Source: Owenia fusiformis | Lineage: Eukaryota | Direction: 5' to 3' | DNA: 64,000 nucleotides | NCBI GenBank assembly: GCA_903813345.2 | Contig: CAIIXF020000001.1 | Span: 992,001-1,056,000 of the forward strand | Translations under genes and position numbers: made by a program | Notes under the pieces: model-generated | Told to the model about the DNA's origin: nothing | The model's input: the letters and a program-made list of their open reading frames with translations, nothing else | Databases searched by the model: none | Shown here: positions 11,679 to 63,239 of the stretch, piece after piece | Layout of the letters: every line of letters begins with the position of its first letter | Numbering within the stretch: position 1 is the first letter of the stretch

Positions 11679-12943
11679 TAACTATATCAAATTGTGACCA
11701 ATTTTGACCAATTGTTGGGTGCTGTGGTTATTCTATGGAGGGGAGTGTAACCATATCAAATGGCTGACCAGTTGTTGGGTGCTGTGGTTATTCTATGAAG
11801 GGGAGTGTAACTATATCAAATGGCTGACCAATTGTTGGGTGCTGTGGTTATTCTATGGAGGGGAGTGTAACTATATCAAATGGCTGGCCAATTGCTGGGT
11901 GCTGTATGTATATTATGGAGTGGAGTGTAACTATATCAAATGGCTGACCAATTGTTGGATGCTGTATGTATATTATGGAGTGGAGTGTAACTATATCAAA
12001 TGGCTGACCAATTGTTGGGTGCTGTATGTATATTATGGAGTGGAGTGTAACTATATCAAATGGCTGACCAATTGCTGGGTGCTGTATGTATATTATGGAG
12101 TGGAGTGTAACTATATCAAATGGCTGACCAATTGCTGGGTGCTGTATGTATATTATGGAGTGGAGTGTAACTATATCAAATGGCTGACCAATTGCTGGGT
12201 GCTGTGTGTATATTATGGAGGGGAGTGTAACTATATCAAATGGCTGACCAATTGTTGGGTGCTGTGGTTATTCTATGAAGGGGAGTGTAACTATATCAAA
12301 TGGCTGACCAATTGCTGGGTGCTGTATGTATATTATGGAGGGAATTGTAACTATATCAAATGGCTGACCAATTGTTGCTTGCTGTGGTTATTCTATGGAG
12401 GGGATCGGAGTGTAACTATATCAAATGGCTGACCAATTGCTGGGTGCTGTGGTTATTCTATTGAGGGGAATGTAACTATATCAAATGGCTGACCAATTGC
12501 TGGGTGCTGTATGTATATTATGGAGTGGAGTGTAACTATATCAAATGGCTGACCAATTGTTGGGTGCTGTATGTATATTATGGAGTGGAGTGTAACTATA
12601 TCAAATGGCTGACCAATTGCTGGGTGCTGTGTGTATATTATGGAGTGGAGTGTAACTATATCAAATGGCTGACCAATTGCTGGGTGCTGTATGTATATTA
12701 TGGAGTGGAGTGTAACTATATCAAATGGCTGACCAATTGCTGGGTGCTGTATGTATATTATGGAGTGGAGTGTAACTATATCAAATGGCTGACCAATTGC
12801 TGGGTGCTGTATGTATGTTATGGAGTGGAGTGTAACTATATCAAATGGCTGACCAATTGATGGGTGCTGTATGTATATTATGGAGTGGAGTGTAACTATA
12901 TCAAATGGCTGACCAATTGTTGGGTGCTCTGGGTATTCTATGT
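11679..12943. repeat. 60-bp minisatellite, about 21 units
   Basis: Unit tggctgaccaattg(c/t)tgggtgctgt(atgtatat/ggttattc)tatggag(t/g)ggagtgtaactatatcaaa, in register with the 60-nt lines. Two main variants. Confidence 0.97.
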
Positions 12944-14373: not shown

Positions 14374-14568
14374 GGTGGTGATATGTTTCTGAAGAAAGCT
14401 CTGCTCTCCGCATATGAAAAAGAATTAGAAAACTTAGAAGCTCTCGAGATGGACCTCAAAAAGAACATTGCATCAATCCTCAACAAAAAAGAGGAACTGC
14501 GCATGAGAAAGCGGCAGCCAATCCAATGCTTGATTAGTGCAGTATCTTGTTATGGCAAGAAGAAATAA
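14374..14568 (+). CDS. AstC: Terminal coding exon of an allatostatin-C/somatostatin-family neuropeptide precursor; predicted mature peptide pQPIQCLISAVSCY-amide with a disulfide ring
   Basis: Acceptor tttttcag at 14366-14373, phase 0. Reads GGDMFLKKALLSAYEKELENLEALEMDLKKNIASILNKKEELRM-RKR-QPIQCLISAVSCY-G-KKK-stop: helical propeptide, basic convertase site, N-terminal Gln, C-x6-C-aromatic ring, Gly amide donor plus basic residues. AATAAA at 14803-14808. The upstream signal-peptide exon was not identified. Confidence 0.85.
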   Translation, partial: GGDMFLKKALLSAYEKELENLEALEMDLKKNIASILNKKEELRMRKRQPIQCLISAVSCYGKKK

Positions 14569-15822: not shown

Positions 15823-17872
15823 AAAAAAACACTTTCATACTTTGGATTTGGCCCCTCAATAATAAAATGGATTCAAACTTTTTACAAATCAATAGAAAGT
15901 TGCATCATGAACAATGGCTACTCATCAAACTACTTTTCTCTAGAAAGAGGAGTGAGGCAAGGGTGCCCACTTAGCCCTTACCTTTTCATAATTTGTGTTG
16001 AAATTCTAGGAACAAATATTCGCGTTAACAAGGACATAGAAGGAGTGAACATACCAGGAGAACAAGCAAAGATATCGCAATATGCGGATGACACATGCCT
16101 CTTGCTAAAAAACACCCAATCACTAAAAAAAAGCACTAGATATCTTTAAAACTTTCGGAGCTTGTTCCGGACTTAACATCAATGTCACCAAAACAGAAAT
16201 AGCAACAATTGGAAGCAACGTAGATCAAGACAAAACGGAAGAAGACTGTCACACCTTGAATCTTGCCATCAAGAGAGATGAAGTAAATGTTCTGGGAATT
16301 ACTATACCGCTGGACGGGAGAGATATTAACGATCTGAATTTTCCAAAAGCCATTCTGAGAATAAATAACATTATAAAAAGTTGGACCCCAAGGAACATAA
16401 CCATTATAGGAAAGATAGCTGTTACAAAGGCCCTGCTTATTGCACAGATTACATACATGTCCTCCATACTCAACCCACCAGAAAACACTATCAAGGAAAT
16501 TGAAGATATCCTCTTTAAATTCATTTGGAGCAATAAACCAGACAAAATTAAAAGAAGGGTCCTTATGAACTCATATGAAGAGGGAGGCCTCGAAATGATT
16601 CATATTAAAACATATATACGCAACTTAAACCTTAAATGGATCAAGAAACTAATGGATGAAATCTGTAAAGGGAAATGGAAAAACATATGGAAAAATTATA
16701 TCAAGAACTTAAATGAAGAAAAAATATGGGAGTATAATCTCAAAGAAGACAACAAAGAGATAAATAGGCTCCAACTGAATTCCTTAATGCACTGCTACAA
16801 AAACTGGTGTAACCTAAAGTTTGAATCAACAAGACAAATAAAATGCCCCAAAGAATCCAACATATGGAACAATGACTGTATAAAATCAGGTGGACAGGTG
16901 ATGAATTTCAAAACATGGCAAGAACATGGTATTCACACCATTCAAGATATATTCGATAAAGATAAACCAATGTCAAGAGAACAGATCATCAGAAAGTACA
17001 ACTTTCAAACCATATGTTTTCTGGATGTCATAAAAGTGACATCAGCAATACCAAAAGAATGGAAAGATCGAATGAAGGACAAAAGTACACAAGACTCGGA
17101 GCCAAGCATTAAGGAATGGTTCACAAAGTCACCAAACAAGATGACATACAAATACCTACTAAAAAAGAACAATATACTAAACCCAGCAATAACGACACAG
17201 GAGAAGTGGGAAGAAAAGCTACAAAACCGGAATATAACCTGGAAAAAAATATACCTAAACACAAGGAAACTAACAGTTAACATCAGACATATTTGTTTCC
17301 AATACAAGCTCATATCGAGAATCATATACTTCAACAAAGGCTTATTTGAAATGAAGATACCCAACGTATCTTCCCCAATCTGCGATCTGTGTAAGGAGGA
17401 ACTGGACACGATAGAACATGGATTATATGACTGCGTAGTTGTAAAAGAATTCCTAAAACAATGCAGCAGTATATTGAAAGAAGATATCCCGAAACGAGAT
17501 AGTTTTCTTCTTGGAACAAACAGCCAACCTGAAGACATCTTACTGCACCTGAAACAAAAAACATATATCTACAAGTGTAAAATGAAAAAGAACCGCCCCA
17601 ACATGACAGAATGGAGAAACTATGCAACAAATGATGAACTTATAGAAAGTACATGCGCAAAAAATAAAACACATGACATTCTATGGACAAAACTCAGGAT
17701 GTATACAAAAAAATGAAGAAAACTGAAGACCACTCACATTTTAAGCTATTTTTATTTTTCATATAATACTGGTGCCCCCGTACCATTCATAATCAATAAG
17801 TATTATGTATTTATATAAGTGACTAAGAAATCAAATATACTGTAAACAAAATGTTTTACTGTGAATAAATAA

Positions 17873-27134: not shown

Positions 27135-28507
27135 ACCAAGATTTGCCACGCCAATTTGATTTTGCATCATCTTTCACCCAAATTGCCATGCCAATTTGAT
27201 TTAGCATCATCTTTCACCCAGATTTAGCATCATCTTTCACCCAGATTGCCTCGCCAATTTGATTTTGCATCATTTTCCACCCAAATCGCCATGCCAATTT
27301 GATTTTGCATCATGTTTCACCAGGATTTGCCAAGTCAATTTGATTTTGCATGACTTCTTACCCAGATTCCCTGGCCAATTTGATTTTGCATCATACTATA
27401 CCCAAATTGCCATGCCAATTTGATTTTGCACCATCTTTTAATCCAGATTACCACGCCAATTTGATTTTGCATCATCTTTCACCCAGATTGCCACGCCAAT
27501 TTAATTTTGCATCATCTTTCACCCAAATTGCCATGCCAATTTGATTTTGAATCATCTTTTACCCAGATTGCCACGCCAATTTGATTTTGCATAGTCTTTC
27601 ACCAAAATTGCCTCGCCAATTTGATTTTGCACCATCTTTTACCCAGATTACCACGCCAATATGATTTTGCACCATCTTTCACCCAGATTGCCATGCCAAT
27701 TTGATTTTGCACCATCTTTTACCCAGATTACCACGATAATTTGATTTTGCACCATCTTTCACCCAGATTGCCATGCCAATTTGATTTTGCACCATCTTTT
27801 ACCCAGATTACCACGCTAATTTGATTTTGCGCCATCTTTTACCCAGATTGCCACGGCAATTTGATTTTGCATCATCTTTCACCCAAATTGCCACGCCAAT
27901 TTGATTTTGCATCATCTTTCACCCAGATTCCAACGCCAATTTGATTTTGCATCGTCTTTCACCCAAATTGCCTCGCCAATTTGATTTTGCATCATCTTTC
28001 ACCCGGATTTGCCACGCCAATTTGATTTTGCATCATCTTTCACCCGGATTTGACACGCCAATTTGATTTTGCACCATCTCTAACGCAGATTGCAACGCCA
28101 ATTTGATTTTGCATCATCCTTCACCTAGATATGCCACGCCAATTTGATTTTGCATCATCTTTCACCCGGATTTGCCAAGTCAATTTGATTTTGCATCATC
28201 TTTCACCCAGATTGCCACGCCAATTTGATTTTGCATCATCTTTCACCCATATTGCCACACCAATTTGATTTTGCACCATCTTTCACCCAGATTTGCCAAG
28301 TCAATTTGATTTTGCATCATCTTTCACCCATATTGGCACGCCTATTTGATTTTGCATCATCTTTCACCCGGATTTGCCAAGTCAATTTGATTTTGCACCA
28401 TCTTTCACCCATATTGCCACGCCAATTTGATTCCGCATCATCTTTCACCCGGATTTGCCACGCCAAATTGATTTTGCATCATCTTTCACCCGGATTTGCC
28501 TCGCCTA
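27135..28507. repeat. 40/41-bp minisatellite, about 34 units
   Basis: Unit gccacgccaatttgattttgcatcatctttcacccagatt(t). Confidence 0.97.
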
Positions 28508-30368
28508 TTCTTAGAACCAGCTAGCTACGCCTTTGCATTGCATATTAGAGTTTGGTTAGGGATTTAATCTTATATTCAAAGCGCAGCTTCACGCTTATAA
28601 TTTTAGATATGATTATTGGCGTGTGCTCTGCAAACAGATTTCATCTCACACTGATTGAAAGGATTTCCTGGCTAAGAATATCAAGTTCATGTCCTTCCCT
28701 TCTTTTAATAGACCTTTCTCATAAATCCTGTCATCTTTTGGTACATCAAGTACACCAATGAAGCTATGATATATTACATTAAGTTTAAAGGTTTGAATAT
28801 TTTAGCAAATGTGTTATTCACTTTTGGTTGTGTTGTTCATTTTTGTTGGTATGTGTTTGTGTTTGTTATCTTCACATTTGTTTGTTTCATCACAAAGATA
28901 ATGATAAAGGTCAGGGTTCAAGCTTCCGATTCTTTCAGTATGTTCCAGTTACTTCCAGTTTCACACAAGAGGGGGAGAAACCCCAGGGTTCAAAGATGAC
29001 ATACGCTTATAATGTAAATCTGTATCGAGATGACATCGTCGCTGATTGGTTTAGCGAGTCGATCGTTGATTGGTTTAAAACTAGGTCAATTTGAAAACTT
29101 TAAAAACCAGGGGGGGAGATCTCCCAAAGTTCAGCCTTCGTATTCGATCACGTGGTACTCACGTGCTAGATCCATTTAAGGCTTACATGGCCATATACAT
29201 ATGTATAGGAATCCAACTGATTGTCCGCCATTTTGAATATCATGTGATAGATCCATATAAGGTTTGTATGACCATATAGGATGGCTAAGGGGAATCCCCG
29301 AATACGAAAGAATATGATAGCTATTATTATGGGAGCTACTCATTTCTTCTGTTTAAAAATCAAGGTGGAGGATAAACAAATATACGTACCTTTGGGAAAG
29401 GAGGTGCGCGAAGGAGGAAATCGTATGTCAATTGAATCATGGGGTTTTCCCTCTTAGTTGCACACAGAATTTAAATAAGATTTCAAAACTGAATAATATT
29501 AGCAGGGTTTTTAAGAGTAGGCATCGGTGAAATATGGTATAATTTGACACAATATGGATATATTTCTATACCTCTTCTTGAAAATAACAACGCATGCCTA
29601 AATGAGCTTCAAAAAAATAGGCATTTATAAATACATTTTCCATTCCACAGAAAATACGTTGTAACTTTTTAACATTCTTAACATAACTTTATTCAAATAT
29701 TCACATCAAATAAATTCAACAGAAAGCACAGTTTACAATGCGTGCCCACTTTCGCAATCATGCATGAATAGTTTCAGCAGGTCTAGTAGTTCCATCATAT
29801 TACAGTATCTGAGTATGATTGGGTCGTATTATCGCCCCGGGTATACGATGGGCTCGAGCAGCTCATGGAATAAATTGAGCATGAATACTGCCTGTTACAT
29901 ATTCGATTCTGAAATGATTTAATCTTTAAAATTGTACACATCAGGGTCACAGTTAATGCTCTCTAAGAAATCTGTAACCCTGGATATATAGTATTTTTCT
30001 AAATTATCACGATCAGTCAACTGCATCATCAGTGTATTAAATCATTGTTTCCTCACCGGCATATCCGGTAATATAACGTAAAGAACTAGCAGAGGATGGG
30101 TAGAAATAACATAAGTATCGTCCAATCAGAAATCGAGGTTTTGATATTTGCAATATATAATTCACGCAACAGAGACATTTGGTTTAAATGTGGTAGTAGC
30201 TGGTTCGTTCAGTGCGCCCCTTCCTTGTGATTGGGCAAAGAGGAGGATATACCCAGAATTCATTGAAGCACCTAATAGAGATTTACATGGAGGTAATTGT
30301 AGGATCACATTCGACGAAAAAGCAGACTCATCTGGTTCAATTCGTACAGTGGTTCCGCTCCTTGTAGA

Positions 30369-30602
30369 TTATCTCCGCTTTCTTCTTCCAAAGCACGATA
30401 CGGCCGACCAATAACATTGTTTAGCTTCTTTATGAGTTCTTTGTCTTTGTCCTCCCCCTCTTTTAATGAGACTGTCATTTTCTTCCAGGGAATTAAATTC
30501 AACATTCATGTCAGAGTTTCGTGAAGGAATTTGCTGTTCCATATTGTCTAGGGCATCGAGAAACTCAAGCAATCGCATCAGGAGAGGCTGGATAGTTTCC
30601 AA
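30369..30602 (-). CDS. Terminal coding exon of a second allatostatin-C-family (AstCC/AstCCC-like) precursor; predicted peptide GGGQRQRTHKEAKQCYWSAVSCF-amide
   Basis: Strong acceptor ttttttcatttgtttcag (AG at 30604-30603), phase 0. Reads LETIQPLLMRLLEFLDALDNMEQQIPSRNSDMNVEFNSLEENDSLI-KR-GGGQRQRTHKEAKQCYWSAVSCF-G-RRKRR-stop: acidic propeptide, dibasic site, C-x6-C-F ring, amidation signal. Minus-strand AATAAA at 29688-29693. The upstream exon was not identified. Confidence 0.82.
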   Translation of the reverse strand: METIQPLLMRLLEFLDALDNMEQQIPSRNSDMNVEFNSLEENDSLIKRGGGQRQRTHKEAKQCYWSAVSCFGRRKRR

Positions 30603-31619
30603 CTGAAACAAATGAAAAAAATATAATATAACAGAAAATTAAATTCATCGTCGGATTCAACGTATAGATAAACTGATTAAATTCTACCCTGATTCCAGAT
30701 TCAGGTGAAACAATCACAGTTTTTGGCACAAATCAAAGAAGAAATGACCAGCTAACTTTCTTAAAATCACGAACCATTGAATAGTTAGTGAAGATCTATG
30801 ACCTCAGATTCTTGAGTATACTGTAATAGGAACTTTTGCCCACTCATAAATATTCTTATATACCTTTTGATTGTGTATGAGAATTATGCATGTTATGAAA
30901 TGTTTTGAATTATCAAGGCGATGTGGTAATACACTGAAGGGGACTGTATTCTTGTTTTTTAATACGTACATATTTTCTTATGAATTTTCAGATTTTAGTG
31001 AGGACAATTAGTTGGTGAACCCGTACAATCCCAAAACCGATCAAAATATGAAAAGTCAGATTGGATTGATTCATAAATAATCGTGTATGGCAAGTCAAAT
31101 GGCATCAATTGTAACCAAGACGTATAAACAAAACATTATGAGATAACTCATTATTCTGGTACCAGGTATCACCCATTTGTGATCCATTGTATGTGTGAAG
31201 ATATTGATATCCATGAGTGGATATAACTGATATTTTTGAAAAACCATAGGATTGTCCGTTTATCCCATGGGAAATCTTAACCCAGATTTCGAAAAAATGG
31301 AAGGAAAAAATCTAATTTTTTTTTAAAAAAAATCTTGAAAAAAAATTTTAAGAAAGAAATTATTGAAAAAATCTAAACCATCGAATATCACTTTTAAGAC
31401 CATCGAATATCACTTTTTGAGAGGTGATATTCGATGGTTTGGTGATTTTTTGCTAAAATATGATATCTTGATCCACATATAAAATATATCTAGTTGATAT
31501 TCGATCTATATCCTTGTAACCATGGGATAAGATGAGTATATTATTTACCTGAATATTTACATGTTATAGCTGATCAAATGTGACTGAAGCATAACAAAAA
31601 AATCAATAGACAAGACAAT

Positions 31620-33465
31620 GGTACCTGTTACACTGCTGGGTTGAGTCTAACGAAGCATTTTTGTAACGAAGGTTAGCGAAAAAATTGTGTCCACACTGGC
31701 TTTATCCAACCCTAACGAAGCAATTATTTGGTGTTACACTGCACTTAAAAAGCTTCGTTGCGCGTGCGCAGTACTCATCTGCCCCACCCACTTATTATGA
31801 TTAATATTTTTGTTCTTTTGATATAAACCATTGATCAAACTCAAAAATCTAATTTTTAATGTTTATTTTTAACAATTCAGCACAGAAAAAGACTAGTTCA
31901 AAATTCTCTGGAAAATAAAACCAGATGAATGTGATCATTCCGTACACATGTCCATACATTTTTTCCCATCATTTCGATTTTTATATATTTCAGCTGTCAA
32001 TACGATTACAAGTATTGTTTTCATTTTCTATCATTTCCTTATAGAATAAAAATAGGCCTATGTTAATTACTAGGAGGAATTGGATTTGGGGTTTATACAG
32101 AGGACTAGTCTGTAATATCGTATAAAAACGTTCAATTTCCAAATGGACTTCTCAGTTATATTTCAAATAGTGTAGCCATTACTAAAATATCTCGGTGCAT
32201 TCGGCTGGTGGTTTAACTACTATTTCATGATCAATTCATTTTAATATGAATATTACCCGTCTCGCCAATATTCCATGCATATTTGAGTGCGTTTGACATA
32301 AATTAGTATGTTAATCCATCAGTCGTCCGTTGAATTCGAAAATGGCGCAAATTGGAAGAAACTTAAATATCAGTTATACGCATCGTCTAACGACACATCA
32401 ATAGTGTATGGGGCTGGCCTAAAACATGCAGCCTCTCTGTGGCAAATATCTGTCGACAAGAAACAATTTTGGCCACCGTCCCTTGTCCGCAGGTTTTACT
32501 GTATTTGTATACGGAAGTTTTGAAACGTAATTAATTCAATATATTTAAACATGAAGTTTAAATTCAATTACATTTTAAAATCGTCGAAGAATGAAATAAT
32601 AGAACGACTAGTACAAGTATTGCAATGGGGCGATAATCAGTTGAATACGATTTCTGAAGAGAGACATTTTCGAATCAATCAAATCGGCTAAATTCTCTGA
32701 TATGATTCACCGGGAAGCAATTGTATCAGTATCATGGTATAAACACCTTTAGAATTACATTCAAGGTATAAATATTCGAGGCGCAAGAAAAAATTAATAT
32801 TAAACATGTATGCCACAACTTTCTATTTACTAAGCATATCTTATGTAATTTCAAAAGTTTACCCTTCCACATATGAGACGGAGCTTTCCCGAAAGAGGGA
32901 CATTTAAATATTCTAGCTTTATTCCCTTATAGATCAGATAAACGTTTCAAAAATACCGTATACATATACGGTAAAACCTGAGTGTTTTAGATTTAATAAT
33001 TTTTGTCATATCAATGCGAGGAAAGGCAGGGAATCGAATGAAATGCCACGAAAGACGGTAAATCACATTTGTACGTGGCGTTTAGTGCTTGAGTTAGCGT
33101 CAATCTGTGACGCAAATAGGTAATTATTTTAATCAAAACGTAGCATTATAATAATACGTACTTAAAAACATGTTCTTTCCTCGCGATTCCTCTCATTTAA
33201 TACAAAATGATGAATGTGCTCTTTATTATGCGCATGCGCAAACCGCCAACTAAGCATTTTCTAACGAAGCTACCTGTTACACAGGCAAAAAACGCTTCGT
33301 TGGGACCTAACCTTCGTTGAATTTTCTACTCAATTGCTTCGTTATCAACTAAGCTTTTCTAACGAAGGCGGAGGTGTTACACTGGCCCAAAATTGCTTCG
33401 TTACGAAGCTTTTTGTCAAATTGCTTCGTAACGAAGCATTTCAACTGGCCTGTGTAACAGGGGTC
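31620..33465. mobile_element. About 1.85-kb non-autonomous DNA transposon, copy 1 (PIF/Harbinger-like by 3-bp TSD)
   Basis: Imperfect TIRs GGTACCTGTTACAC / GTGTAACAGGGGTC, flanked by AAT on both sides. Subterminal AACGAAG/CTTCGTT arrays. Near-identical copy at 50480-52320. No transposase ORF. Confidence 0.9.
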
Positions 33466-35079
33466 AATGATAAAGGTTTTGGGCTACTCACGCTCAATTA
33501 TGTTGAGACTACATGTCTAATTGATGTATTAAAGTATATTCATTATTATACTCGGAATTCAAGAATTAAATTCAAGACTTCATAATAAACTAGAAAATCC
33601 TTATTAACTATCTGATTGAATGTGTCTACTAATGAGGAAAGAAATTGTAACCCGACCATTGCATAAGTGTACTATCTTACTATTGAACACTATCTATCCC
33701 TGGGCACAATTGATAACATTCCGTATACATCGATTTGAATCAAGATCTAAAAATGGTCGAAATAGAGTTAAATGAATTGAATCTGTACTTGCTTTGTTAA
33801 AATATCAGAGACATTTGAGATTGTATTTTTATGTAGGACCCCCGGGGTAGGACTCGAGTACTCCCGGTAGAAGAACTGACTGGTGACATTAAACTCCAAG
33901 ACTCCGCCAGCTGAGTCAAGGGTACGACTGTGATAACTGGACAGAATAAGACTGAAAAATGTCGCATATAAACGGCTAGGTTGTTTAACAGATTGGCATG
34001 AAAAAATGATACGACCCCAAAATATTATAAAATAATTAGGACTCCAATCTTCCAAAATAATACTAGTGCCACTGCACTATTACAATGCCAACCTTCAGAA
34101 TCTTTTAGTACCATTTACCTATTTTATTGCTTGTCAAAGCCAAATGTGAACTAAGCGGACCTCTAGCAATCCGAAGGCAAGTCACATTCGTATAAGAAGA
34201 GACATATAAAACTAATATACTTATAAACCCTTAGGTATGAATATAGAAATTGTACATTCTAATTATAACGACGACAATTGCTCTAAATCAACATGTTCGA
34301 TAAGGGAATGTTGCTCTACTGTTCCAATTACATGTATCCTTATACTCTTATTAATTTCTAGAGAATATTTTTGACCTCGTAAAATAGTTGAACTCGGAAT
34401 ACTATTTTGGAACAATATAGTCATCAGAATAGTTGGGGGCTCCATATTAAGAGAGACGTATTTAAAACACAGGTAATTATGGAAGTAATTATATTGATTA
34501 ATATTGAGATGAGGGAGCAAAAATAGGTTGTTATTTTGAAAAGTGATAACATTTGCTATCTGGATTTCTCTAAATATCTCTAAAGCTCTTTAAATCTGTA
34601 TGTTCGTTGAGAGAATATTGTCTCATCAGTTTGTAAAGTATGATACTGATTAATATAATATATATACATATATATATTTGTCAACTGGACGATCAGAATG
34701 TATCTGAGTCGTCATTGCTAATATATCAAATTCCGTGTTGACAAGTCTGTTTGATCGAAATGTTATAAATAATTGAGTTCCAAGACAAGTCATAACTGTC
34801 AATGAGGGCCTAAGAGGTTTGTTCGATTAAATAAATATATATGAAATTATTGAGGCTTTCAAAGACTAATTGATAAGACAAGGACAATAAAACAATGATT
34901 AATATTAAGGCGAAGCACTATAGCTATATATATATTATTGATGTATGACGATCCTCATTCTAGTATCATCATCATTGCATCTTTCTGTTTGACCATAAAG
35001 GTTGAGAAGAAATGAGATGGCATGGTTTATAATGATGGGCGATCTTGTATTATGACTAAACGATTCTGATGTCATGTGA

Positions 35080-35875
35080 ACGAGTATACGACTAACTACT
35101 TTGCCAAACGAGTGTGCGACTTTGATAATAAAGGGTATGTGTGTTGAACGAATGTACGGCTTTGCCGAACGAGTGTACTACTGTGCTACACCAGTGTACG
35201 ACTGTTCTAAACGATTGTACTTAACGGTACGAGTATACGACTTTGCCAAACGAGTGCAATACTTTGCTACATGAGTGCGCGACTATGACAAACGAGTGTA
35301 CCACTTCGCTACACGAATGTGTGACTTTGCTAAAGGAGGGTACGAATGTGTCAAACGAGTGTACGACTTTGCTAAAGGAGGGAACGAATGTGTCAAACGA
35401 GTGTACGACTTTACTAAAGGAGGGTACGAATGTGCCAAACGAGTGTACGACTTTGCTAATGGAGGGTACGAATGTGTCAAACGAGTGTACGACTTTGCTA
35501 AAGGAGGGAACGGGTGTGTCAAACGAGTGTACGTATTTGCTAAAGGAGGGAACGAATGTGTCAAAAGAGTGTACGACTTTACTAAAGGAGGGTACGAATG
35601 TGTCAAACGAGTGTACGACTTTGCTAATGGAGGGTACGAATGTGTCAAACGAGTGTACGACTTTGCTAAAGGAGGGAACGGGTGTGTCAAACGAGTGTAC
35701 GAATTTGCTAAAGGAGGGAACGAATGTGTCAAAAGAGTGTACGACTTTACTAAAGGAGGGTACGAATGTGTCAAAAGAGTGTACGACTTTACTAAAGGAG
35801 GGTACGAATGTGTCAAACGAGTGTACGACTTTGCTAATGGTAATCGTAGAAAGAGTACGATTTTGTTAAACGAAG
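35080..35875. repeat. 21/42-bp minisatellite with a 168-bp higher-order repeat
   Basis: Unit cgagtgtacgactttgctaaa+ggagggtacgaatgtgtcaaa. Degenerate 21-bp monomers lie on the left. Confidence 0.95.
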
Positions 35876-37374
35876 TTTTTCGTAGTCAATGGCTATTCCG
35901 GTGTGAGATTCTCATATAGACAATAGTGTACAGAAGTAGTACATAGTGGCGTTTCAATCTGTTCTCCTGAAGACGTTAATAAAAAGCGACTAATGTATCT
36001 GGATGCTAATAGTTGATTATTTCATTTACAAAATACAATTCTAGAACAATAGAACAGAGAAAAGACAAATGTGTTTCTTTATTCCTGGTTGACGGACCAA
36101 TGTAGCTAATTTGCACTATTGACGAACACGCGTTGATTAACTATAATTCCTGTTTCAAGAAGTTAGTTTTGCATCAAATGTCTGGAACACCCACATCTCG
36201 CTCCCCCTCGACCTCCCACTGTCTTCTTCTCGTGTAGGTGTGAGGGCACTAGTGTAAACAATAAAAGTAGGCGAGCAGTGTGAACATGGATCCATTTGAA
36301 ACAGACACATTGAATGTCTGTTTGTGTAAATAAAGTTGACAATAAAATTTGGTTTTTGCAAAACAAAAATGACGCCATTTATATTATGGGCGCTGGTTGA
36401 CAGACATTACAATAAATTTTTATTAAACTTAAACTTATTATATACCAAATTAAAGATAAGTAAATTCCCTATCCACTGGTATATAATATGACATGTTTTC
36501 CTGAAGAAAATCAATATTTATTTTTGAAATACGAGTGTCCCATTTTTTGGACCACCTTTGCTCATCAGAGTGTAATGGGAAATCAAAGTTAGCTTAACCG
36601 GCCACACCAAAACATGCAGTACTACCAACCACATACAATCACAATACAATAAAATATGTATTTTCATGAATTACATTTCTTAGAAATAAATGAATTTGTA
36701 GCTTGCTTTACAAATTATAATAAGTATAGTGCACAGTAGCACAGTATAATGCTAAATAGCCATTGTCTTGCGATGAGCACATTGTAAATAAATTTCATAA
36801 ATATTCTTACATTGACATAGACCCTTGATTTCTGTCTCTTTTTAGCAATTTTATTTTTATATGATGAAATAAGTAGGAATACACTCATTTGAATTAAGAA
36901 TGCCAACAGGAGTAAGATACACGTGAAGTTTCCGATATTTCAAGGAGAATTCACACTTATTACGGCCAAATAAGATAATGAACCGGTTGTAATTAAAATG
37001 TATATTTTTGTTGTTTATGGGTCCAATGAAAATGTGATTTCTTATCTCATTCCAGCACAAATTTTAGAATAATTGGTTTTTAATGACACTGGTCCTGGAA
37101 TAATTCTTTCAGCATTTTAGTTTTGAAAATGTTCATCCCGAAATTCATATAAACCCCGAGATATTGTTGTCTTATCGAGTCATATCACGGTAACAAAGGA
37201 TCAATTAAATGGGACAAACGTCCCCTCGGACCACCACATTCTTGAATGAGACCGAAGCCAAATAGATTACAAAAATAATCTCAATCACAGGTATTCTACT
37301 TGGTAATCGACAGTCATCGGATAAAATGAGTTTTCGCATTATTTTCCTTTAAACACACAAAAATTATACGTACA

Positions 37375-37865
37375 TAGGGGTTATGCACTGGGAGGTTTTG
37401 GATACAGGGAATATCCCGAGGGATATACAATATATCTTCCCGAGCGACCGAAGGGAACGAGGGAAGATGTATTGTATATCCCAAGGGATATTCCATGTAT
37501 CCAAACCGACCGTGCATAACTGGTGTATCTCATACTTGAGTGGGTTTAGGGTAGATTTAACCTTTTCCACCTTTTTCAAATGACAAGATATTTATATTTA
37601 ACATTTTCGTAATATTCTTTTTGTTCAATACAATGAAATTGTAACATTTAAACTTAAAAAATTTAAATTGTAAAATTGAAAAATTAAAACTTTTGATATT
37701 TAAACTTTTTTAAACTTTTGAAAATTCCCGGGAGCGGGATGGATATATTATATCTGCCCGCATTTGGCCTGGAGCGGGACATATACAATATATCCTGCCC
37801 GCCCCTCAGATATGATATATATTCCCGAGTGATATCTACCCCAAACCCACTTAAGTATGAGATAC
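37375..37865. mobile_element. Inverted copy of the 20735-21222 element
   Basis: Reverse complement of 20735-21222. The spurious ORFs 37314-37517 and 37364-37579 match 21080-21376 and 21018-21239. Confidence 0.85.
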
Positions 37866-40800
37866 AACTCTATATAGTCACACGGTATGACTCTCACTTC
37901 TAATTGCACATGAGAGCTGCATTGTTCGAACCAATTAAGTAACTTTCAAGAAAAGATGAAAAATATGTTATAAGTATTGCCTAAATCACTTTAAATGTGC
38001 GCGTGTAATGACTTTCATGGTGTCATATTCCCTCGCTTAGCCAATTTCTGAGTGAAAAACGTCAGCTTGTGGGTTTTTTAACCAAAAATACTTAGTAACG
38101 AGACAACGATTTATGAATACAGTTCCCACAAGTCATGATCATTCTTCAAGATGGGGCTTCGTTGAGATTAGAAGAGAAACGAAATACCCTTGGACTAACC
38201 CTAAAGGCTGCAACCTTTTTGTAACACTTAGTCGCAAGGGGAGGGTCATTTGGACCCAACTCTGACTGATTTCAATAATGTTGGTATTGTTGTTAACCTC
38301 ATTCAATTAACTTTTCACATATTTATTCTTTTTTTTAAAATAGGTCAACAAAGGTCAAATCGAGGTCAACGCGACCTAGGGGTGAACAATTTGACATTTT
38401 GTGATAATTCTTTTACAGGATTAGAAACAAGGTACAGTAACTACAAATATTTTATGATTTTCATTTTTTGTTGGCATCAATTTCCAATCACCTTAATTTT
38501 ACGCCAAAAAGTGTCATTTATCTGTGGCTCGGGCTAAAAATAGGTCTAAAGGAGGCATAACAAAATTTCGCAAAAAAGTACGATTGAAAAAATCGAGGGG
38601 GGATCAGACATTAGGCTAAGGATGCCACGCGTTCGAGAATCGCATTTCTCAAATTGGATGACTATCAAGGAACAAAACAAGAAGCTTTTTATGACAATTA
38701 CACTGGGTGAAAAATATTTTGTTATAAGGACCTTTGCTTCGAAATTTTAGTTTTAGTTTGGAAACAATATTACGGACACGGTCATAAGTGATAACTGGCA
38801 AAATCAACCCTGGCGAACGTGCAATTACAGTAGGTCGAAAATTGATGATAAATCTGATGAATTTTTGAAAATCGACTTTCCCATATAAACCAATCGGAAA
38901 TGGAAGGTTTGCCGCAAGTCATATGACAGAATATTCATTTATCTAAGTTCTTGCAAAAATACAACAATGGTAGTCGATTGAACTTGCTAACTTTATTTAA
39001 TAAAAAGTTGAGACGTGTCTTCAAGTTAAAAAATATTATTTTTCAAAAAACTTCTCCCGTTGAAATAACATATAGTAATTTTATCATTTTGTAACATCAG
39101 CCTTTTCTAGCGCAAATTTGGTTACGGTAGATTGGAACTGATTTTAGTATGCCTAGTGTAGGCCCGCAAATATCCCAAATTGTGTGCTAAAAGGGGTTGA
39201 TTAATTCCACAAAATGGTACACGGCTCATAATACACCATTTTAAAGCTAATGACTTTGGGATTCCAGAAATGAATTTTAGTCTTCTGTGACGCTATATTT
39301 TTGGGATTGAATTAAACTCAGATATGTATTTCTGATTTTTCCAATTTTTCCTTTTTATCAGAGAACCACTGGAATCCGATATAATAATCATAAGACCACA
39401 GAGTATCACCTTTGTGCATGGTCCTATCCCGGCGGGGTCCTATACCTTATGCACATATTGATGACAGCATGGGAATAAAGTTTGACCGAGCGTTAGTAAG
39501 AACAATGTTTGAACCAAACATGTGACATAAAAGTTGATAAAGTTTTGTCTTTCAAACAAACGAAGTAACACCTGGACATTCATAAAACCATTGCAAACAT
39601 CAATGGGCCTCCTCAGGAAACGCCCGCATCCCCACCAAGGCTAAAATATAATTTTTGGAATTAGAAAACAGGTATTATCAGTAGAAATTATAGTAATAAA
39701 AATTGTAAATTACAAACCTGATTATTTGTTGTTTTCTCTTTGTCATATACGTAGAAAGCGTCAGTATATTTTCCACAAATCGAAATAGTCATTATAGTTA
39801 AATATAAGTACTTTACAGCCAAACGTCCCCCAAGCATCCCGTCTTCCACACAGTCGCACAGGAACACGCACGTTATACTTATCTAGAGATATTTGATTCC
39901 TGATTTACTGATACAATCTATGACAACAATTGGTTCTTCAATTCTCTAATTACTTTGAACTGTGTACCTCACGATTAACTTGACAGCTAAAGCGCCTTTT
40001 TATTTTGTCTCATTTGTCGGCAATCAACACTTTAAGAATTGCAACTAATGATGATTGTCTCCTCCGGAACTTCTTATTAATATTTTACGCCCTCAGTCAG
40101 TTGATCTCTCGTCTCTATGGCTGAATAATATTCAGTGGATGCGCTCTCCGGAAACTCTATTTTATTTGCCATGAATGCGATACCTTGTTAGTAAAATGAC
40201 TAATAAGACATAGCCCAATTACAAATACTATGAGTATTGACTCTTCTTCCAATTATATTGATCCAACTCCAGATATTACGGTCATAAAAGTGGTGACCAA
40301 AGTCGGTCAGAAGTCGTAAAGATAGGCAGCTGATTACAACGTCCCATTATAGCAAGCCACCGATGTAATACACCATTATAAAGTCGGGTCAAAGTATATA
40401 TCATTGTAAAATTTACGTCCTTTTCTATGACGGAAGGAAAAGAACATGTCCGAAAATCCAGGTTACTGAGACTAACTTTCGCTAAACGAATTTGTTCCCA
40501 AGAGCTCTACTCACACTACCCCGGGATTCTTCACGCTAATCAGTTGTTGAATTGTACTCTCTCCGGGTTGGGCACAACACGACCCTGACAGAACAGATCA
40601 TTGTTGCTATTTGATGCCAGAGAATCCAATGCATTGCTAATTAACTGGATCATGATTAAAAATGGCAAATAGGCAAGACGAGGAATCCTATGAATCCAAT
40701 AGATTTTGAAAATGAAACGATTTTGAAAAAATGCTTTGCTCTTGATCTATCATTCGATTTGAAAAATAATAGTGATGGGCTGCAGATTGATCAACCAACA

Positions 40801-45264: not shown

Positions 45265-63239
<17,975 letters not shown>

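Follow-up and report, generated by a model that had tools for sequence, protein, structure and literature searches.

A second, aromatic-ring gene of the allatostatin C type beside the canonical one in the annelid Owenia fusiformis

The 64,000-nucleotide stretch analysed here, called the window below (contig CAIIXF020000001.1 of assembly GCA_903813345.2, forward-strand positions 992,001 to 1,056,000, with coordinates counted from its first letter), comes from the annelid Owenia fusiformis and contains two genes of the allatostatin C (AstC) type. One of them, gene 1, is the canonical AstC gene of Owenia. The other, gene 2, is an additional gene of this type in an annelid, not named before; it is expressed, and the family to which it belongs is already known. 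A preliminary description made from the letters had pointed to a peptide-coding segment at 30369..30470, with no strand given. The peptide is real and is encoded on the minus strand, in a stop-to-stop open reading frame (ORF) at 30369..30638 whose end reads SLIKRGGGQRQRTHKEAKQCYWSAVSCFGRRKRR followed by a stop, the tail of the same frame (30369-30638) being also written NDSLIKRGGGQRQRTHKEAKQCYWSAVSCFGRRKRR-stop. The features of gene 2, all on the minus strand, are the following.

39718..39837, minus strand: coding exon 1, 40 codons, MLGGRLAVKYLYLTIMTISICGKYTDAFYVYDKEKTTNNQ, encoding the presumed signal peptide and the first part of the proregion
30603..39717, minus strand: intron of 9115 bases, phase 0, GT..AG, with high-copy repeats and one satellite
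30369..30602, minus strand: coding exon 2, 77 codons plus stop, with the proregion, K87-R88, the peptide, Gly112 and RRKRR
30390..30458, minus strand: predicted mature peptide GGGQRQRTHKEAKQCYWSAVSCF (23-mer, residues 89-111, from the translation)
30459-30464, 30387-30389 and 30372-30386, minus strand: predicted cleavage and amidation sites, respectively KR, Gly112 and RRKRR
29700..30368, minus strand: probable 3' untranslated region (UTR) of uncertain extent, an overlapping chain of contigs from run X12

Counted from the ATG at 39837, the two coding exons of gene 2 encode a protein of 117 residues. An in-frame TAG lies 15 codons upstream of this ATG, and both the donor of exon 1 (CAG/GTTTGT) and the acceptor of exon 2 (tttcag/TTG at 30602) are canonical. 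Exon 1 comprises exactly 120 coding bases, that is 40 codons, and the intron is therefore in phase 0. A Leu-rich helix, LLMRLLEFLDAL, sits in the part of the proregion encoded by exon 2. A word-index protein search with exon 2 gave a single match, Owenia's own protein P0001 (127 aa, 'unnamed protein product, partial'), which is 100% identical to the exon over residues 50-127 and whose N-terminal portion corresponds to 39718-39867, minus strand.

For the exon, 18 public sequencing runs were listed; for X1-X15 the type is guessed or not recorded, none being recorded as RNA. Four of the 18 (X16, X5, X2 and X12) were examined over 29700-40100. In X12, a contig of 484 bases with a depth of 13.5 covers 30213-30602 and then jumps over 9115 bases to 39718, its exon-1 part being 94 letters long; the skipped segment ends in CT..AC on the plus strand, which is GT..AG on the gene strand. 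This joint is the predicted splice, and a processed gene 2 transcript therefore exists. Downstream of the coding region, X12 contigs form a chain (29700-29985, 29956-30107, 30123-30242 and 30213-30602) interrupted for 15 bases at 30108-30122; as contigs cannot reveal RNA ends, the limit of the 3' UTR is approximate. Raw RNA-seq reads from X16, of which about 6% was read, cover exon 2 at depths of 0.27 and 0.6 per bin, corresponding to about two reads, with first mates on the plus strand only. A contig of X2 extends 17 bases into the intron, so this run may hold DNA or unspliced RNA.

Two variants were noted in the transcribed region. The first, 30423 A>C, found in run X2 and in one X16 read, affects the third codon base of Ala100 (GCT to GCG) and is synonymous by reading; the second, 30224 C>T, falls in the presumed 3' UTR. 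As for the intron, the stretches 31088-33516, 36293-36639, 37334-38027 and 38722-39068 have contig depths that add up to between hundreds and tens of thousands in the three contig-based runs and carry raw RNA reads on both strands. These deep-coverage stretches are high-copy transcribed repeats, not AstC transcript.

The organisation of the precursor is that of a neuropeptide with one peptide at its extreme C-terminus, and K87-R88 is the only dibasic site before this peptide. The N-terminus, MLGGRLAVKYLYLTIMTISICG, has the core LYLTIMTISIC (best 11-residue Kyte-Doolittle mean of 2.0) and, judged from hydrophobicity alone, fits a signal peptide, which would be removed around residues 22-27. The Leu-rich helix of the proregion might aid sorting, by analogy with prosomatostatin, in which a proregion helix has a sorting role. 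Standard processing rules, namely dibasic cleavage, carboxypeptidase trimming and Gly-directed amidation, predict that a prohormone convertase would cut after K87-R88, that a carboxypeptidase would trim RRKRR (R113-R117) and that Gly112 would be turned into a C-terminal Phe-amide. The two Cys residues of the peptide are exactly six residues apart (C-YWSAVS-C), and a disulfide bond between Cys103 and Cys110 would close an eight-membered ring, the product being GGGQRQRTHKEAKQCYWSAVSCF-amide. An additional cut at R93-Q-R95 would yield a 16-mer, the shorter form envisaged in the preliminary description. By analogy with AstC elsewhere, the peptide may serve as a neuro- or endocrine signal through a somatostatin-receptor-like AstC G protein-coupled receptor; AstC peptides are generally inhibitory, according to the introductions of Koch et al. 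2022 and of the Aplysia study.

Assignment of gene 2 to the AstC type is supported by its architecture and its resemblance to gene 1. In the available sections of Koch et al. 2022, the ring of protostome ASTC is always six residues long, and all ASTC and SSRP genes examined have a phase-0 proregion intron. Gene 2 combines the AstC-type hallmarks: a short precursor, a single C-terminal peptide preceded by a basic site, Cys-x6-Cys and a proregion interrupted by a phase-0 intron. The ring, the KR before it and the Gly plus basic residues after it bear out the initial call of an AstC-family amide. Spiralian AstC precursors (annelid, mollusc, brachiopod and nemertean) are likewise short, with a single C-terminal Cys-x6-Cys peptide and a phase-0 intron directly before a Leu-rich stretch of the proregion. 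In a BLASTP comparison of the two Owenia precursors, the last 19 residues align with 9/19 identities (pairwise E 1e-5), and tblastn between them within the window gives E values of 0.013-0.021; with precursors this short, weak sequence statistics are the norm. Translated in six frames, the window has two instances of the pattern C-x6-C-[FYW]-G-[KR][KR], as against none in 100 first-order Markov simulations of it, so that the match exceeds chance; the second instance is the known Owenia AstC gene (14527-14565, plus strand).

In the ESM Atlas, the nearest neighbour of gene 2 is an unnamed, mostly arthropod cluster (0.92, 176 shared features), followed by a second arthropod cluster (0.85) and, at a greater distance, by urotensin-2 (0.81) and somatostatin (0.79) clusters. 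Gene 1, used as a control, falls next to the same two clusters (0.91 and 0.84) and to an 'Allatostatin C' cluster (0.83), and it also has urotensin and somatostatin neighbours (0.79 and 0.78). We take this result as a lead towards the AstC family only. Its use for discriminating between paralogue types was dropped, given that the control matches the same clusters at nearly equal scores. Pfam returned nothing relevant for either precursor; the sole listed match, to MksE (E 0.059), was dismissed as due to chance.

Altogether, gene 2 is probably a functional, transcribed two-exon gene for a secreted AstC-type prepropeptide of 117 residues. Some observations nevertheless weigh against this reading. 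Its expression is documented by one spliced contig, from a run of unrecorded type (X12), and about two raw RNA reads. The hydrophobic core of the presumed signal peptide is broken by Lys9. A phmmer search with exon 2 against 1.84 billion representative proteins retrieved only the query itself at E 0.001, and the cross-species support for the gene amounts to about 19 residues.

The neighbouring canonical gene is represented in the window by its last coding exon.

14374..14565, plus strand: last coding exon of gene 1 (canonical Owenia AstC), GGDMFLKK...RMRKRQPIQCLISAVSCYGKKK then stop, 100% identical to P0002

This exon is identical to CAC9671965.1 Ofus.G2183, the sequence taken as Owenia ASTC by Koch et al. 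2022, and its sole match in the word-index protein search was its own Owenia protein, P0002. The predicted peptide is QPIQCLISAVSCY-amide; it ends in Gly-KKK and is thus predicted to be amidated, unlike the other annelid AstCs in the supplement of Koch et al. 2022. Exon 1, with the signal peptide, was sought in the 64-kb window, including by tblastn, and was not found; it lies outside the window, and the phase-0 intron of gene 1 is therefore longer than 14.3 kb. The two genes are arranged tail to tail, with stop codons 15.8 kb apart. A tblastn search of the 64 kb with both proteins revealed no third AstC-like exon.

Which type of AstC gene 2 represents was addressed by scoring ten residues, from one before the first Cys to one after the second, with BLOSUM62 against motifs from printouts of the Koch et al. 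2022 supplement. These decapeptide scores, together with comparisons by eye, are the basis for assigning the paralogue. The scores are as follows.

Arthropod AstCC: gene 2, 46; gene 1, 34
Arthropod AstC: gene 2, 44; gene 1, 32
Arthropod AstCCC: gene 2, 41; gene 1, 38
Owenia gene 1: gene 2, 38; gene 1, 54 (self)
Nemertean AstC2: gene 2, 36; gene 1, 36
Rotifer: gene 2, 32; gene 1, 25
Platynereis AstC: gene 2, 28; gene 1, 40
Nemertean AstC1: gene 2, 27; gene 1, 42
Gastropod AstC: gene 2, 22; gene 1, 35

Gene 1 thus has its top scores with nemertean AstC1 (42) and Platynereis AstC (40), and gene 2 scores 22-28 against these and the gastropod decapeptide. The identities of gene 2 over the ten residues are 7/10 with AstCC, 7/10 with AstCCC, 6/10 with AstC, 7/10 with gene 1 and 5/10 with nemertean AstC2. 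On this basis, gene 1 appears to behave as a canonical spiralian AstC with an aliphatic ring, and gene 2 to belong with the aromatic-ring forms. Ring positions 1-2 are aliphatic in spiralian AstC (L-I, L-V or M-V) and aromatic in gene 2 (Y-W); the N-terminal extension counts 14 residues in gene 2 as against four in spiralian AstC, and the E/K-rich '...KK.QLEIKKR' proregion segment of annelid AstC is lacking. What gene 2 has in common with gene 1 is Q-C, S-A-V-S-C and Gly-amidation. The ring sequence itself is unusual: none of CYWS, CFWS, CYWN, CFWN, CYWH and CWWN has a match in the Koch et al. 2022 supplement, nor does CYWS have one in that of Thiel et al. 2021.

Gene 2 was also compared with nemertean AstC2 (...KRDYVRDCFFHAVSCY-amide), like gene 2 a second paralogue beside a canonical aliphatic AstC. 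It is headed 'Allatostatin C2 (Nemerteans only)' in the supplement of Thiel et al. 2021, and the available text of that study describes the peptide as confirmed by mass spectrometry in Lineus longissimus. With the Gly included, the rings read C-Y-W-S-A-V-S-C-F-G in gene 2 and C-F-F-H-A-V-S-C-Y-G in nemertean AstC2, so that in both a pair of aromatic residues occupies ring positions 1-2 and is followed by x-A-V-S-C-aromatic-Gly-basic. Neither has the usual Asn at ring position 3, where the nemerteans have His and Owenia has Ser, and their Leu-rich proregion helices look alike by eye. They differ in the Trp, which the nemertean ring does not have, and in the lead to the ring, DYVRD in AstC2 as opposed to a long basic GGGQRQRTHKEAKQ in gene 2. 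Aromatic, amidated rings are also found in the rotifer AstC entries of the Koch et al. 2022 set.

The proregions were compared by eye as well. LLMRLLEFLDAL of gene 2 shares 6/12 residues without gaps with LLDRLLVALQKA of arthropod AstCC and 6/13 with AALRKLLLQLDAE of lepidopteran AstC, whose ALRKLLLQLDA is about as good a match as AstCC; with one gap, it also resembles the hoplonemertean AstC2 stretches ...LLVQLIDNAIDDM... and ...KLLVQLIDNAIDDM... Leu-rich helices directly follow the intron in all these precursors, gene 1 included. The Leu-rich motif was consequently dropped as evidence of orthology to AstCC, being similar in arthropod AstC, in nemertean AstC1 and AstC2 and in gene 1.

We infer that gene 2 probably arose from the canonical Owenia AstC gene by an old local duplication. 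BLASTP detects no similarity between the proregions of the two genes. Of the eight residues that they share in Q-C..S-A-V-S-C.G, six use different codons by reading, and the ring Ser is encoded by TCG in gene 2 and by AGT in gene 1, codons that are not one mutational step apart. A DNA alignment of the two C-terminal coding ends, made without regard to codons, brought no further information. With proregions that cannot be aligned and such codon differences, there is no sign of a recent duplication or of gene conversion. A duplication that took place before the annelids arose and is common to nemertean AstC2 appears plausible, if just short of probable. Some observations speak against such an ancient origin. 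At ring position 3, both Owenia paralogues have Ser, an unusual residue there, Asn being found in nearly all others. AVSC and Gly-amidation are common to the two neighbouring genes, which are identical at 7/10 ring residues. Finally, no aromatic-ring AstC was found in other annelids among the published data sets examined: the available text of the Aplysia study has one AstC entry for each of four annelids, that of the mollusc study, which takes in two annelids, gives each mollusc precursor a single AstC-like peptide, and the two Glossoscolex entries among the annelid AstCs of the Koch et al. 2022 supplement are both aliphatic.

These same observations fit a lineage-specific event, in which gene 2 would have arisen within annelids or oweniids and its Y-W ring and long extension would be secondary and convergent. 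We regard this scenario as quite possible, though tentatively. It would account for the tail-to-tail adjacency of the genes over 15.8 kb, for the shared Q-C..S-A-V-S-C-[YF]-G with its Ser at ring position 3 and for the predicted amidation that sets both Owenia peptides apart from the rest of the annelid AstCs in the Koch et al. 2022 supplement; gene-2-like sequences were found neither among the annelid entries of that supplement nor among the 1.84 billion representatives. It is harder to reconcile with proregions that do not align, saturated synonymous sites and Ser codons, TCG and AGT, more than one step apart. Moreover, the gene 2 proregion is similar by eye to those of arthropod AstCC (6/12) and, with one gap, of hoplonemertean AstC2, and it is gene 1, not gene 2, that scores best against spiralian AstC1.

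Returning to an ancient duplication, it is tempting to extend it further. Gene 2, nemertean AstC2 and the rotifer AstCs might be the spiralian orthologues of an ecdysozoan aromatic-ring AstC lineage that was later triplicated in arthropods into AstC, AstCC and AstCCC, the canonical aliphatic 'lophotrochozoan AstC' being a separate, linked and ancient paralogue. This extended proposal is doubtful.

The preliminary description had gone further in another direction and likened the peptide specifically to arthropod AstCC and AstCCC. The three arthropod types, AstC, AstCC and AstCCC, were reportedly set out by Veenstra in 2009 and 2016. The counts behind the likeness hold: KQCYWSAVSCF matches KQCAFNAVSCF of AstCCC at 8/11 positions, both being followed by Gly and basic residues, and CYWSAVSCF matches CYFNAVSCF of AstCC at 7/9 (AstCC and AstCCC motifs from the Koch et al. 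2022 supplement). The description had also allowed for an arthropod host; Owenia, an annelid, lies outside that group. Specific orthology does not follow, since gene 1 and nemertean AstC2 likewise end in AVSC[F/Y]-Gly, and this ending does not single out AstCC or AstCCC.

That gene 2 is a specific orthologue of AstCC or AstCCC, with the C/CC/CCC duplications predating the protostome ancestor, is therefore unlikely in our view. Besides the identities just given and the amidation, AstCC has the best decapeptide score (46), the extended peptide starts with Gly after a dibasic site as in AstCC (KR-GGGQ versus RR-GQAKG), and the proregions match at LL.RLL..L. More broadly, gene 2 resembles the arthropod peptides in its aromatic ring start, in the A-V-S-C-F end (AstCC and AstCCC), in amidation (AstCCC), in the Gly-started extension (AstCC) and in belonging to a local cluster of paralogues. 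However, these features form a mosaic. The Gln before Cys is that of AstC and AstCCC, the Tyr at ring position 1 that of AstC and AstCC, the amidation signal that of AstCCC and nemertean AstC2 and the long Gly-started extension that of AstCC, and Y-W does not precede the ring. No arthropod type has Trp and Ser at ring positions 2-3, where F-N is invariant. The AstCC peptide form, Y-W-[RK]-C-Y-F-N-A-[VI]-[ST]-C-F with a free C-terminus, is not matched by A-K-Q-C-Y-W-S-A-V-S-C-F-Gly of gene 2, which has a predicted amide and no Y-W-[RK](Q)-C lead such as AstCC and AstCCC show; neither is the AstCCC 14-mer S-Y-W-K-Q-C-A-F-N-A-V-S-C-F-amide directly after K-R, gene 2 having Y-W-S, no S-Y-W and 23 residues. 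In the proregion, the AstCC motif KR-A-A-L-L-L-D-R-L-[LM]-V-A-L-Q-K-A starts with a dibasic site that the counterpart stretch of gene 2 lacks, and a similar Leu-rich motif is present in lepidopteran AstC. Furthermore, the differences between scores of 46, 44 and 41 are trivial, and the window has two AstC-like exons, not three.

Two 'Charonia lampas' (gastropod) transcriptome shotgun assembly entries in the Koch et al. 2022 supplement encode AstCC and AstC precursors of the insect type. One of them, the AstCC entry, closely resembles Tribolium AstCC (shared ...YQLGVKYDEYPMIVPKKRTA.LVDRLMVAL...). The two entries look like arthropod contamination, not evidence for AstCC in molluscs.

A somatostatin- or urotensin-like (SSRP-like) identity of gene 2, instead of an AstC-type one, is very improbable. 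It was suggested by the aromatic-Trp pair within the disulfide ring, from which the preliminary description had surmised a somatostatin-like character, and urotensin-2 (0.81) and somatostatin (0.79) are among the distant neighbours in the ESM Atlas. According to the available sections of Koch et al. 2022, spiralian SSRP-like genes have a W-K ring motif and typically three exons, with a phase-0 intron followed by a phase-1 intron that divides the mature peptide between exons 2 and 3, although some annelid SSRP-like genes depart from this three-exon structure. In gene 2, Trp is followed by Ser and not by Lys, hence there is no W-K motif. The ring has the six residues of protostome ASTCs as described in the same sections, and the two coding exons are separated by a single phase-0 intron, with the whole peptide in the last one. 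Gene 1, an accepted AstC, has the same urotensin and somatostatin neighbours. Gene 2 thus departs from spiralian SSRP-like, vertebrate somatostatin and urotensin II genes by the lack of W-K, a fixed six-residue ring, the absence of a phase-1 intron and two rather than three coding exons. As it has neither the W-K motif nor the three-exon structure, its Y-W pair is no evidence of somatostatin-like character, and that part of the initial description was not upheld. The independent paralogue that the description envisaged together with this character may be the right reading.

The idea that gene 2 is a decaying or non-functional copy or a chance ORF, to which its sole annotation as 'unnamed protein product, partial' and the very low RNA coverage in the one raw-read run examined (X16) might point, has hardly any standing in the face of an intact ORF spanning both exons, canonical sites for splicing and processing, a contig of X12 that crosses the splice, a sole listed coding-exon variant (30423) that is synonymous by codon reading and a peptide pattern seen in 0/100 simulations.

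The remainder of the window includes part of an unrelated gene and repetitive DNA. On the minus strand, 56908-57375 encodes a Pfam FAT domain (E 2.4e-25) and is an exon of a large mTOR/FRAP-type kinase; the ORFs at 61236-61670 and 62086-62418, also on the minus strand, resemble mTOR HEAT-repeat exons by eye and have no Pfam match. This mTOR-like kinase gene could help to anchor the AstC pair in synteny comparisons. A 529-codon open frame lies between the AstC genes, at 16127-17716 on the plus strand; it matches zf-RVT weakly (E 2.3e-4, which does not reach the Pfam cutoff) and is probably the tail end of a retrotransposon without long terminal repeats (non-LTR). Four satellite arrays give rise to long repeat-derived ORFs in the window.

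11705-12928: satellite array, 60 bp x 20 copies
27221-28509: satellite array, 40 bp x 32 copies
35102-35837: satellite array, 42/84 bp x 17.6/6.1 copies, located in the gene 2 intron
53327-53621: satellite array, 56 bp x 5 copies

As for novelty, the strings CYWSAVSC and CLISAVSC were found in no paper by a full-text literature search, which leaves out supplements and many subscription papers, and no Owenia neuropeptide catalogue turned up in the literature search. In the Koch et al. 2022 supplement, SAVSC is found at two places, each of them in gene 1. How AstC, somatostatin and their paralogues relate to one another is a matter of active debate (Koch et al. 2022; Zhang et al. 2022). The schemes in current use assign one aliphatic-ring AstC to each annelid or mollusc, confine AstC2 to nemerteans and regard the C/CC/CCC multiplication as restricted to arthropods.

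The Owenia gene pair indicates that the AstC-type family has been duplicated outside arthropods too. Gene 2 also provides a natural ligand with Trp and Ser where the arthropod AstC, AstCC and AstCCC sequences examined have F-N. Owenia is an early-branching, slowly evolving annelid, and the presence in it of a linked, expressed, aromatic-ring paralogue with a predicted amide makes the age of the AstC duplication directly testable, through synteny and receptor pairing. If the duplication turns out to be specific to oweniids, gene 2 would be an ordinary lineage-specific neuropeptide paralogue. If instead the aromatic lineage is ancient, the ancestor of protostomes, or at least that of spiralians, would have had two adjacent AstC-type genes, most annelids and molluscs would have lost the aromatic one, and equating mollusc or annelid AstC with insect AstC would amount to comparing paralogues.

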